This document shows positions 15,433 through 18,721 of a stretch of DNA of 41,280 nt, piece by piece. The position numbers were made by a program, and so were the translations under genes. Origin of the DNA: a virus. Lineage: Duplodnaviria > Heunggongvirae > Uroviricota > Caudoviricetes. The number at the start of each line of letters is the position of its first letter. The stretch's first letter is position 1. The DNA is taken from positions 1 to 41,280 of the IMG/VR virus record IMGVR_UViG_2718218131_000003. The stretch is one strand, 5' to 3'. The notes below the pieces were generated by a model. That model was not told where the DNA came from. It made no database searches and saw only the letters and a list, made by a program, of their open reading frames with translations.

Positions 15433-16481
15433 ATGGCTAATACTGTAAAAATATCCAGTTGTGAGTTAATCAACGCTGATTGCCTGGAATTTATCCAGAC
15501 CTTACCGGAAAATTCTGTCGATCTGATAGTCACAGACCCGCCATACTTTAAAGTGAAGCCCGAGGGCTGGGATAACCAGTGGAAGGGCGACGATGATTAC
15601 CTGAAATGGCTGGATCAGTGTCTGGCGCAATTCTGGCGGGTACTGAAACCTGCCGGAAGTCTCTACCTGTTCTGTGGTCATCGCCTGGCATCTGACACCG
15701 AAATCATGATGCGTGAGCGCTTTAATGTGCTGAACCACATTATCTGGGCGAAGCCGTCCGGACGCTGGAACGGGTGCAATAAGGAAAGTCTGCGGGCGTA
15801 TTTTCCGGCAACAGAGCGCATTCTGTTTGCAGAACATTATCAGGGACCGTATCGCCCGAAAGATGATGGCTATGTGGAGCAGGGGCGCGAGCTAAAACAG
15901 CACGTCATGGCCCCGCTGATTTCTTACTTTCGTGATGCGCGTAAATCACTGGGAATAACGTCAAAACAGATAGCGGAAGCCACCGGAAAGAAAAACATGG
16001 CTTCGCACTGGTTTGGTATCAGTCAGTGGCAGTTACCGAACGAGGGTGATTACAACAAATTGCAGGCGTTGTTTGCGCGTGTTGCGGCAGAAAAACATCA
16101 GCGCGGGGAACTGGAAAAGCCACACCACCAGCTGGTCAGCACATACAGTGAGCTGAACCGGCAGTATACGGAACTGCTGAGTGAATATAAAAATTTGCGG
16201 CGGTATTTCGGTGTGACGGCGCAGGTTCCGTACACCGATGTCTGGACGCATAAACCGGTGCAGTACTATCCAGGGAAACATCCGTGCGAAAAACCGGCAG
16301 AAATGCTGCAGCAGATAATCAACGCGAGCAGTCGTCCGGGAGACCTGGTTGCAGATTTTTTATGGGTTCAGGTTCAACGGTAAAAGCGGCGATGGCACTG
16401 GGGCGTTGTGCGATTGGTGTTGAGCTGGAGACCGGACGCTTTGAACAGACAGTCAGGGAAGTTCAGGATTTAATCGTTTGA
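15433..16481 (+). pseudogene. DNA N6-adenine methyltransferase (DPPY motif), split by a frameshift at a T6 tract
   Basis: ORF 15433..16383 carries DPPY (motif IV) and ends ...DLVADFLWVQVQR; ORF 16284..16481 in another frame carries FFMGSGSTVKAAMALG (motif I, FxGxG). Frames meet at TTTTTT 16356..16361; one additional T would give a continuous ~349-aa enzyme. Confidence 0.75.
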
Positions 16482-16530: not shown

Positions 16531-16606
16531 GGCCCTTTAGCTCAGTGGTGAGAGCGAGCGACTCATAATCGCCAGGTCGCTGGTTCAAATCCAGCAAGGG
16601 CCACCA
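16531..16606 (+). tRNA. tRNA with CAU anticodon, ileX-like (tRNA-Ile2, lysidine type) or Met
   Basis: 76 nt, acceptor stem GGCCCTT/AAGGGCC, anticodon loop CTCATAA, GTTCAAATC T-loop, 3' CCA; closely resembles E. coli ileX as recalled. Confidence 0.8.
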
Positions 16607-16607
16607 A

Positions 16608-16684
16608 CCGCCACTAGCTCATCAGGAAAGAGCGTCAACCCTTTAAGTTGAGTGTGCGAGGTTCGAGTCCCCGGTGGCGGTCCA
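16608..16684 (+). tRNA. tRNA, atypical; anticodon loop CCTTTAA (UUU/Lys if canonical), isotype uncertain
   Basis: 77 nt; acceptor CCGCCAC/GTGGCGG, D-stem GCTC/GAGC, anticodon stem TCAAC/GTTGA, T-loop TTCGAGT, 3' CCA; position 33 is C rather than the near-universal U and C1-G72 starts the acceptor stem. Confidence 0.5.
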
Positions 16685-16686
16685 GT

Positions 16687-16762
<76 letters not shown>

Positions 16763-16765
16763 TAT

Positions 16766-16840
<75 letters not shown>

Positions 16841-17048: not shown

Positions 17049-17073
17049 GCCCGCTTTTGCGGGCTTTTCTTTT
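17049..17073 (+). terminator. intrinsic terminator downstream of the tRNA array
   Basis: Hairpin GCCCGC-TTTT-GCGGGC followed by TTTTCTTTT. Confidence 0.6.
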
Positions 17074-17133: not shown

Positions 17134-17349
17134 ATGAAATCCATGGACAAAATTTCAACGGGCATTGCCTACGGCACCTCCGCAGGCAGTGCTGGCTACT
17201 GGTTTTTACAGTGGCTTGATCAAGTCAGTCCGTCACAGTGGGCTGCGATTGGTGTACTGGGGAGTCTGATTCTGGGCTTCCTGACTTATCTGACAAATCT
17301 GTACTTCAAAATCAGAGAAGACAAGCGTAAGGCTGCACGGGGAGAGTAA
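17134..17349 (+). CDS. S: class II holin (phage 21 S-type pinholin) with dual-start motif
   Basis: 71-aa product [71 protein letters not shown]; Met1-Lys-Ser-Met4 dual start and two TM segments as in S21. Confidence 0.85.
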
Positions 17350-17353
17350 TTCA

Positions 17354-17668
17354 ATGACTCAAAACTATGAAGTGATTGTGAAAGGGATCCGCAATTTTGA
17401 GAATAAAGTTACGGTAACTTTAGCGTTACGGGACAAAAAACGCTTTGACGGTGAAATTTTTGACCTGGACATCTCGCTGGACCGTGTTGAAGGTGCCGCG
17501 CTGGAGTTTTATGAGGCAGCAGCCAGAAGGAGCATCAGACAGGTCTTCCTGGATGTTGCTGCCGGGTTATGTGAAGAGGACGAGCTGTTGCCAGAAACGC
17601 GCCCCTGTTCAGAGGCGCGGTATACTATAAAAATTAACAGTTCTGATAACTCGATTACAGGTTGTTAG
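17354..17668 (+). CDS. hypothetical protein inserted between holin and endolysin
   Basis: 104-aa ORF starting 5 nt after the holin stop; soluble, acidic, no TM segment; no family recognised. Confidence 0.5.
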   Translation: MTQNYEVIVKGIRNFENKVTVTLALRDKKRFDGEIFDLDISLDRVEGAALEFYEAAARRSIRQVFLDVAAGLCEEDELLPETRPCSEARYTIKINSSDNSITGC

Positions 17669-17723
17669 CTTTTTGCAGTTGGCTTTCCAGTATCTTTCAT
17701 TGGTAGCATCCTGATAAATATCC

Positions 17724-18257
17724 ATGAGCGCAAAAATCAAATACGGCCTGTCAGCTGCTGTTCTGGCGCTGATTGCTGCAGGCGCGTCTGCTCCTCAAAT
17801 ACTTGACCAGTTTCTGGATGAAAAAGAGGGTAACCACACTACGGCATACCGCGATGGTTCCGGTATATGGACCATCTGTCGTGGTGCCACAATGGTGGAT
17901 GGTAAGCCCGTCATACCGGGAATGAAGCTGTCGAAGGAAAAATGCGACCAGGTTAACGCTATTGAACGTGATAAGGCGCTGGCATGGGTGGAGCGCAATA
18001 TTAAAGTACCACTGACCGAACCACAGAAAGCGGGTATAGCGTCATTCTGTCCCTATAACATTGGCCCCGGTAAGTGTTTCCCGTCGACGTTTTATAAGCG
18101 GCTGAATGCCGGTGATCGTAAGGGCGCATGCGAGGCGATTCGCTGGTGGATAAAAGATGGTGGGCGCGATTGCCGCATACGTTCAAATAACTGCTATGGA
18201 CAGGTTATTCGTCGTGACCAGGAAAGCGCATTAGCCTGTTGGGGGATAGATCAGTGA
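17724..18257 (+). CDS. R: SAR endolysin (T4 lysozyme-like, GH24) of phage 21 R type
   Basis: 177 aa; N-terminal signal-anchor-release segment ([19 protein letters not shown]); catalytic E-x8-D-x5-T arrangement ([20 protein letters not shown]). Confidence 0.85.
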
Positions 18258-18721
18258 GCAGAGTCGCAGCGATTATTTATACTCTGGTTATCTGCACCAT
18301 CGTCTGCCTGTCGTGGGCGGTCAATCATTACCGTGATAACGCCATCACCTACAAAGAACAGCGTGATAAAAAAGTCAGTGAGCTGAAGCAGGTGACCGCC
18401 ACCATCGCTGACATGCAGCAGCGTCAGCGTGATGTTGCTGCGCTCGATGCAAAGTACTCGAGAGAATTAGCCAATGCGAAAGCTGAAAATGAAACTCTGC
18501 GCGCTGATGTTGCCGCTGGTCGTAAGCGCCTGCGGGTCAATGCCAGTTGCTCCGCAGCCGTGCGTGAAGCCACCGGACCCACCAGCGTGGATAATGCAAC
18601 CAGCCCCCGACTGGCAGACACCGCTGAACGGGATTATTTCATCCTCAGAGAACGGTTGATGACAATGCAGAAGCAGCTGGAAGGGGCACAGGACTATATC
18701 CGCACTCAGTGCCTGAACTAA
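18254..18721 (+). CDS. Rz: i-spanin Rz
   Basis: GTG start overlapping the endolysin stop (GTGA); N-terminal TM helix ([17 protein letters not shown]) followed by coiled-coil periplasmic domain. Confidence 0.75.
18474..18659 (+). CDS. Rz1: o-spanin Rz1 (lipoprotein) embedded in the +1 frame of Rz
   Basis: Signal peptide with lipobox LVVSAC, proline-rich mature part ([24 protein letters not shown]); entirely inside Rz in another frame. Confidence 0.7.

Follow-up and report, generated by a model that had tools for sequence, protein, structure and literature searches.

A YdfR/DUF1327 family gene between the holin and endolysin genes of an Escherichia coli lambdoid phage, and its possible link to host RNase E

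The virus sequence IMGVR_UViG_2718218131_000003 (Caudoviricetes; positions 1 to 41,280, the whole stretch analysed here and referred to below as the window) carries a lysis cassette in which a gene for a 104-amino-acid protein lies between the holin gene (S) and the endolysin gene (R). The gene product is almost certainly an ordinary YdfR/DUF1327 family protein, a small cytoplasmic protein with an accessory role in Escherichia coli lambdoid phages. The protein reaches 131.3 bits against Pfam DUF1327 (PF07041; cut-off 25 bits, E = 1.6e-38), with its residues 1–96 aligned on positions 1–90 of the 93 in the profile, and matches PHROG 2735 end to end (1–104/1–105, E = 2e-54). Over all 104 residues it shares 96–98% identity with proteins of phages mEp460 (gp55), PhiR47_1 and Perceval. 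A 22-member alignment of diverse DUF1327 proteins has 24 invariant columns, and the window protein possesses all 24 residues; the conserved positions of the N-terminal domain include K10, G11, R13, N14, E16, K18, G33, E34, I35, D37, G47, A48, L50, F52, Y53, E54 and A57, and Y5, Y53, E54 and A57 persist even among members of 28–37% identity. The original prediction had recognised no family for this protein and called for a profile search; that search returned a known family (PF07041, PHROG 2735), and the gene is a routinely annotated member of it, which refutes the claim of novelty. DUF1327 was the sole Pfam match when antiholin and lysis-regulator families were looked for, PHROGs gave no "lysis" category, no NCBIfam model covers the protein, and PADLOC-DB gave no match at E ≤ 0.1. 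The family is very narrow, with 251 clusters among 5.8 billion proteins, the named ones all from Escherichia, Shigella or Salmonella, and a profile search retrieved just 77 representatives among 1.84 billion sequences. The gene and its parts are located in the window as follows.

17354..17668, plus strand: YdfR/DUF1327 family gene, 104 codons and a TAG stop (PF07041, PHROG 2735, phage homologues)
17354..17569, plus strand: N-terminal domain, codons 1–72 (AlphaFold2 model; 58/72 identity to K-12 YdfR; stand-alone homologues of 71–76 residues end here)
17570..17665, plus strand: C-terminal mosaic module, codons 73–104, composed of an acidic Cys/Pro-rich linker, CEEDELLPETRPC, and the short strand motif RYTIKINSSDN
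17606..17707, plus strand: type-specific mosaic segment, covering the 20 final codons, the stop and some 40 nucleotides (nt; blastn block structure)

The open reading frame (ORF) starts with ATG and is parted by a 4-nt spacer (TTCA) from the holin stop TAA, which ends at 17349; another 55 nt (17669..17723) lie between its TAG stop and the endolysin ATG at 17724. The spacing given earlier, an ATG 5 nt past the holin stop and an end 55 nt before the endolysin, was therefore exact, and the description of an acidic soluble product agrees with ours in coordinates and composition: the 11.8-kDa protein has an isoelectric point of 4.76 and a grand average of hydropathy of -0.29, and sequence analysis revealed no hydrophobic, membrane or signal segment in it. 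The ratio of nonsynonymous to synonymous substitution rates (dN/dS) of the N-terminal domain is 0.37–0.42 in frame, compared with 0.71 and 2.55 in the alternative frames, a moderate constraint relative to the control frames that fits a translated gene and not a chance ORF. The ratio is 0.77 inside the near-identical 104-residue type, and 0.19 for codons 73–104, where substitutions are few. Constraint that is just moderate (about 0.4, and 0.77 within the 104-residue type) would also be expected of a mere hitch-hiker, a gene that has no present function and stays because it lies in a tightly packed, selected cassette; a highly variable C-terminus, truncated or fused variants that are frequent in databases and the lack of a strong phenotype on overexpression of the K-12 protein point the same way. 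We nonetheless consider hitch-hiking very improbable, given an in-frame dN/dS clearly under that of the out-of-frame controls, 24 columns that stay invariant across 22 diverse members, an N-terminal domain still encoded by an intact ORF in members of only about 28–37% identity and in different genomic contexts, and the presence of the gene in two thirds of E. coli genomes (see below).

The protein was modeled with AlphaFold2 from a 22-sequence alignment as three antiparallel strands (residues 5–14, 18–27 and 34–43) packed on a helix (50–74), with predicted local distance difference test (pLDDT) values of 70–86, while residues 74–104 were of low confidence (pLDDT < 50). The predicted fold assigns no function: a PDB sequence search with the 104-residue protein gave no match at E ≤ 1, a BFVD fold search nothing at E ≤ 1e-3, and no sequence or fold similarity to a solved phage RNase E modulator (phiKZ Dip or others) was encountered. 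Members of the family share residues 1–72 and the Cys/acidic/Pro linker, which are followed by alternative C-terminal modules, giving lengths of 72, 103, 104, 114, 116, 169, 174, 183, 243, 268 and 287 residues. The same mosaic pattern is seen at the DNA level by blastn. Nucleotides 1–252 of the gene (codons 1–84) are common to most other cassette types and the block that begins 16 nt before the R ATG is common to all of them; the intervening stretch of about 100 nt (17606..17707) is 74% similar to the 169-residue form over part of its length, and in relatives its position is occupied by longer C-terminal extensions and convergent ORFs. Distances from holin to R accordingly fall into discrete classes, from 377 to 1,266 nt. 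Long DUF1327 variants (L003 2501..3010, L004 2501..3052, L008 2537..3268, L077 3221..4027; P0133, 287 residues) bear extra C-terminal modules, namely a helical "SEKDDIES...EQFAAFYDYC" segment and a "WECNRPSFVV..." domain in various combinations.

The gene is widespread. Megablast matches to the 315-nt ORF are present in 3,639 of 5,426 complete E. coli genomes (67%), including ydfR of the K-12 Qin prophage, and are annotated as "YdfR family protein" or "DUF1327 domain-containing protein". Of the records in the phage collection, 438 have an S21-type holin, and about a quarter of these (101) have a DUF1327 protein; the annotation "YdfR family protein" is found in mEp460, BP-4795, Stx2-86, YYZ-2008 and K-12 Qin. 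We also examined the 80 IMG/VR loci in which the holin shares 90% identity or more with that of the window; five were too short, and among the 75 informative ones the DUF1327 gene is present in 49 and absent from 26. A phage-21-type R abuts S in 25 of the 26 loci without the gene, and a 177-residue lysozyme is found in every DUF1327-carrying locus of sufficient extent. The junction between holin and DUF1327 gene is the same in K-12 Qin, mEp460, 2H10 and BP-4795 and in the 49 IMG/VR loci. The suggestion of an insertion peculiar to this cassette, which routine and annotated presence in phage-21-like cassettes was to overturn, is contradicted by these counts (101/438, 49/75 and 3,639/5,426). The gene is "extra" relative to phage 21 and to the 933W/VT2-Sakai cassettes that do without it, but it is not an unusual insertion, being routine elsewhere. 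As phage 21 and 933W-type cassettes lack it, the gene is accessory and dispensable for lysis. DUF1327 is among the commonest E. coli prophage genes and sits in the best-studied class of lysis cassette.

The sole experimental lead for the family is an interaction with RNase E, reported for the K-12 paralogue. A bacterial two-hybrid screen that used RNase G as the bait yielded residues 1–72 of K-12 YdfR on three occasions (Göpel et al., RNA Biology 2026, PMC13232886). Full-length YdfR also gave a two-hybrid signal with RNase E 1–597, and Strep-YdfR co-eluted Rne1-598-FLAG in an eluate rich in DNase-resistant nucleic acid (PMC13232886). Because residues 1–72 of the window protein are identical to this binding fragment at 58 of 72 positions, with conservative changes, we tentatively propose, from sequence comparison, that it may be a late-expressed accessory protein whose N-terminal domain engages the catalytic half of host RNase E/G. 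We infer both that the window protein would bind RNase E in the same way and that this would be relevant in lytic growth. According to this proposal, the Q-antiterminated late promoter would drive transcription of the gene along with the lysis genes, and translation would rely on a strong Shine-Dalgarno sequence embedded in the 3' end of the holin gene. The conserved 72-residue domain would bind host RNase E in its catalytic N-terminal half, and RNase G more weakly, possibly along with RNA; the phage would benefit, late in infection, from altered RNA processing or decay by RNase E, and the mosaic C-terminal tail would merely tune this effect or add partners. Two points from the same study call for caution. 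First, the YdfR pull-down included no nuclease control, so that the contact with RNase E could be bridged by RNA; second, overproduction of K-12 YdfR altered few transcripts and caused no growth defect (PMC13232886). There are two weak hints of a phenotype for K-12 ydfR: its deletion appears in an envelope-integrity screen based on chlorophenol red-β-D-galactopyranoside (CPRG), in the supplementary hit lists only, the main text being silent (PMC3879167), and its overexpression raised the minimal inhibitory concentration of streptomycin 3-fold in a screen. The literature on DUF1327 or essQ/rrrQ/ydfR contained no lysis study.

The genes and signals that surround the DUF1327 gene in the cassette are listed below.

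17134..17349, plus strand: S21-type pinholin/antiholin gene, 71 residues (PF04971 "P21 holin S", E = 1.4e-35; 97.2% identity to phage 21 S)
17339..17346, plus strand: Shine-Dalgarno sequence GGGGAGAG within the last holin codons (sequence reading, junction comparison across loci)
17708..17723, plus strand: conserved leader cctgataaatatcc directly 5' of the R start (junction comparison, blastn)
17724..18257, plus strand: endolysin of the Qin/933W type, 177 residues (PF00959; Ala/Gly-rich N-terminal segment resembling a signal-anchor-release (SAR) segment; E-x8-D-x5-T motif)
18254..18721, plus strand: Rz i-spanin (PF03245, E = 8.5e-50; mEp460 annotation)
18474..18659, plus strand: Rz1 o-spanin lipoprotein, embedded in Rz (PF06085, E = 7.5e-19)

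The holin begins MKSM..., which gives the Met1/Met4 dual start of an S21-type class II pinholin. The endolysin, as read from its translation, has the hydrophobic Ala/Gly-rich N-terminal segment and the E-x8-D-x5-T motif expected of a SAR endolysin; it is 92–94% identical to the 177-residue lysozyme of the Qin/933W type (93.8% to K-12 rrrQ) and about 34% identical to R21. The original view of the cassette as a phage-21-type S/R/Rz/Rz1 unit is hence borne out for S, Rz and Rz1 by Pfam and by the 97.2% identity of S, but not for R, which is not of the R21 type. The start of Rz is probably the GTG at 18254, overlapping the R stop (GTGA), as in the mEp460 annotation (155 residues), rather than the TTG at 18239 of the mechanical ORF list. 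S and R are 374 nt apart in the window (17350..17723), a distance accounted for by the DUF1327 gene itself (315 nt), the spacer before it (4 nt) and the gap after it (55 nt), and scanning the cassette for promoters and terminators revealed none between these three genes.

The core GGAG of GGGGAGAG ends 9 nt before the DUF1327 ATG, and in every E. coli example the gene begins after the same 4-nt spacer and uses this holin-embedded signal. In the insert-less 933W-type cassettes, R itself uses the same Shine-Dalgarno sequence and spacing. All DUF1327-containing cassettes have in common the leader cctgataaatatcc before R (in the window, with equivalents in L001–L005, L011, L015 and L032), and no obvious Shine-Dalgarno sequence was seen in it. 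This arrangement bears on the possibility, raised by the original prediction, that the gene regulates the timing of lysis. It could do so in trans, through the holin or endolysin, or in cis, by moving R onto a leader that has no Shine-Dalgarno sequence and so lowering or delaying endolysin synthesis. In E. coli phages the gene always lies 4 nt after an S21-type holin and always before the 177-residue lysozyme; it takes the exact Shine-Dalgarno sequence and spacing that R has in the 933W type, leaving R behind cctgataaatatcc, and the stop codon of K-12 ydfR and the R start overlap. The ydfR deletion among the CPRG-screen hits (PMC3879167 supplement) would suit a lysis role, but it could equally reflect a polar effect on rrrQ. 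The protein is moreover soluble and acidic and has neither a membrane nor a signal segment, whereas control by holin and SAR endolysin is exerted in the membrane or periplasm; phage 21 and 933W cassettes lyse without the gene; distant homologues are found in tail operons, far from lysis genes; and overproduction of the K-12 protein caused no growth defect (PMC13232886). We therefore found no positive support for the earlier suggestion of a lysis-timing regulator, and judge a role in timing to be quite unlikely.

The distribution of distant relatives is informative in this respect. Profile searches, confirmed by reciprocal searches, retrieved stand-alone proteins of 71–76 residues that match residues 1–72 only, with 28–37% identity. 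These homologues (72–76 residues; e.g. L089 3501..3731, L093 511..741 and L094 529..747) lie outside the S-R junction, in three contexts: between tail genes L and K, between M and L, and upstream of two unrelated holins (Phage_holin_8 and holin_3_7); none occurs in deposited phage genomes. The DUF1327 domain thus also occurs away from the S-R junction, and this speaks against a role devoted to lysis.

All 11 loci with a distant stand-alone DUF1327 gene have a convergent ORF on the opposite strand within about 20–50 nt. One partner family is PHROG 25324 (98–100 residues, minus strand; L088 693..992, L094 768..1070, L096 1340..1639 and L032 1066..1362). In L032 it follows a 72-residue DUF1327 gene in the E. 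coli S-R slot, and the DUF1327 proteins of the other carriers are only about 35% identical. A second family, PHROG 18578 (182–186 residues, minus strand; L089 3773..4321 and L098 768..1328), accompanies two other DUF1327 lineages. About 20 of 52 E. coli-type loci likewise have a convergent ORF in the S-R gap (PHROGs 2411, 2572 and 1853). A 90–92-residue convergent ORF of PHROG 2411 fills the 343-nt gap between a 114-residue DUF1327 gene and R in L015 (3531..3803, minus strand) and seven similar loci. The partner ORFs had no Pfam match, and a PADLOC search of nine of them gave no credible match, the one weak match (E = 0.027) lacking a qualifying stretch. As a candidate remnant of such a partner in the window we considered the 43-residue ORF at 17609..17740 on the minus strand; it clusters only with the same ORF of same-type loci and with no partner family, and was therefore treated as an antisense shadow.

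These convergent genes raise the question of a moron-type gene for defence or counter-defence, acting in phage-phage or phage-host conflict and possibly forming half of a two-gene module with a convergent, perhaps lysogen-expressed small gene, the window copy being partner-less. The constancy of the convergent ORF in the 11 distant loci, the recurrence of PHROG 25324 and of PHROG 18578 across divergent DUF1327 lineages, the frequency of convergent ORFs in E. coli-type loci and the occurrence of the pair at different late-operon sites, in a slot that is a mosaic hot-spot, are consistent with such a module. Nevertheless, neither DUF1327 nor its partners match PADLOC, and the partners have no Pfam family; the window, K-12 and the 116-residue type have no convergent partner, so DUF1327 is kept alone there; and the partners belong to several unrelated families, which would fit independent insertions into a hot-spot equally well. 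A defence function hence seems unlikely to us, while the broader idea of a moron in the original prediction fares better, since a moron-like accessory role fits the data on an extra, dispensable late-operon gene. More speculatively, and with rather little likelihood in our estimate, both lines could be combined: DUF1327 would be the late-expressed half of a mobile two-gene module that inserts with its convergent small gene at varied late-operon sites, making the S-R junction an exchange hot-spot bounded by two conserved blocks; its N-terminal domain would engage RNase E/G, the lysogen-expressed partner would act in exclusion or defence, and the window copy would be partner-less. The recurrent convergent genes of unknown function in any case mark the S-R junction as a place to seek new accessory or conflict genes.

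Three further features were observed upstream of the lysis genes. A strong terminator-like hairpin (GCCCGC-TTTT-GCGGGC, followed by a T-run) at 17049..17064, about 70 nt upstream of the holin start, is presumably a terminator read through by Q-modified RNA polymerase. Four tandem tRNA genes (Met-CAT, Lys-TTT, Thr-TGT and Gly-TCC) occupy 16531..16840, between a methyltransferase gene and the holin, a site that holds tRNA-Asn and tRNA-Thr in phage 21 and no tRNA gene in mEp460. The DNA methyltransferase gene (15433..16481) is split into a 316-residue ORF and an overlapping 65-residue ORF by a -1 frameshift in the T-run around 16356..16361, which has six T in the window and seven in the intact 350-residue mEp460 gene; pseudogenization, an error in sequencing and a phase-variable tract are all conceivable causes.

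Among the closest known systems are phages of the mEp460, PhiR47_1 and Perceval type, to which the 1.2-kb segment from holin to lysozyme is 95–99% identical at the DNA level (98.7% for PhiR47_1). They match the window in the 55-nt gap, in the types of holin and lysozyme and in the Rz/Rz1 pair, and their protein is annotated as "YdfR family protein" or "hypothetical protein". mEp460 shows essentially no difference at the DUF1327 locus; unlike the window, it has an intact methyltransferase gene and no tRNA genes upstream. In the K-12 Qin prophage (essQ-ydfR-rrrQ-rzpQ), YdfR (P76160) belongs to the same Pfam family, and its gene also follows a 71-residue S21-type holin after a 4-nt spacer and precedes a 177-residue lysozyme. 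The two proteins are identical at 58 of 72 positions in the N-terminal domain and 65% identical overall, but K-12 YdfR ends ...SEKVESYLQHQYSFKIENPANKHERPHHKYL, unlike the window protein; its gene overlaps the R start with its stop, where the window has a 55-nt gap, and the Qin spanin is of the DUF2514 type instead of Rz/Rz1. The DUF1327 proteins of Shiga toxin (Stx) phages (BP-4795 ORF47, H-19B, Stx2-86 and YYZ-2008; 114 residues) and the forms of 169–287 residues occupy the same slot after the holin and share the N-terminal fold unit at about 50–55% identity, with different, often long C-terminal modules and often a convergent ORF before R. Two cassettes have no insert: in phage 21 the 165-residue R21 overlaps the S21 stop, whereas the window R has 177 residues and lies 374 nt from S, and in VT2-Sakai (933W type) the 177-residue R begins 4 nt after S.

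Beyond these relatives, two groups of phage genes invite comparison. Lambda-type morons (bor, lom) are lysogen-expressed genes, each with a promoter and terminator of its own. Like them, the window gene is dispensable, set between essential late genes and patchy among similar phages; unlike them, it has no detected promoter or terminator and is translationally slotted behind S. RNase E is the target of the phage proteins T4 Srd, T7 gp0.7 and phiKZ Dip. Should the K-12 result hold, the window protein would resemble them as a small phage protein engaging host RNase E, and, were it also active in lytic growth, manipulation of the main RNA-decay enzyme of the host would extend from T4, T7 and phiKZ to temperate lambdoid phages.
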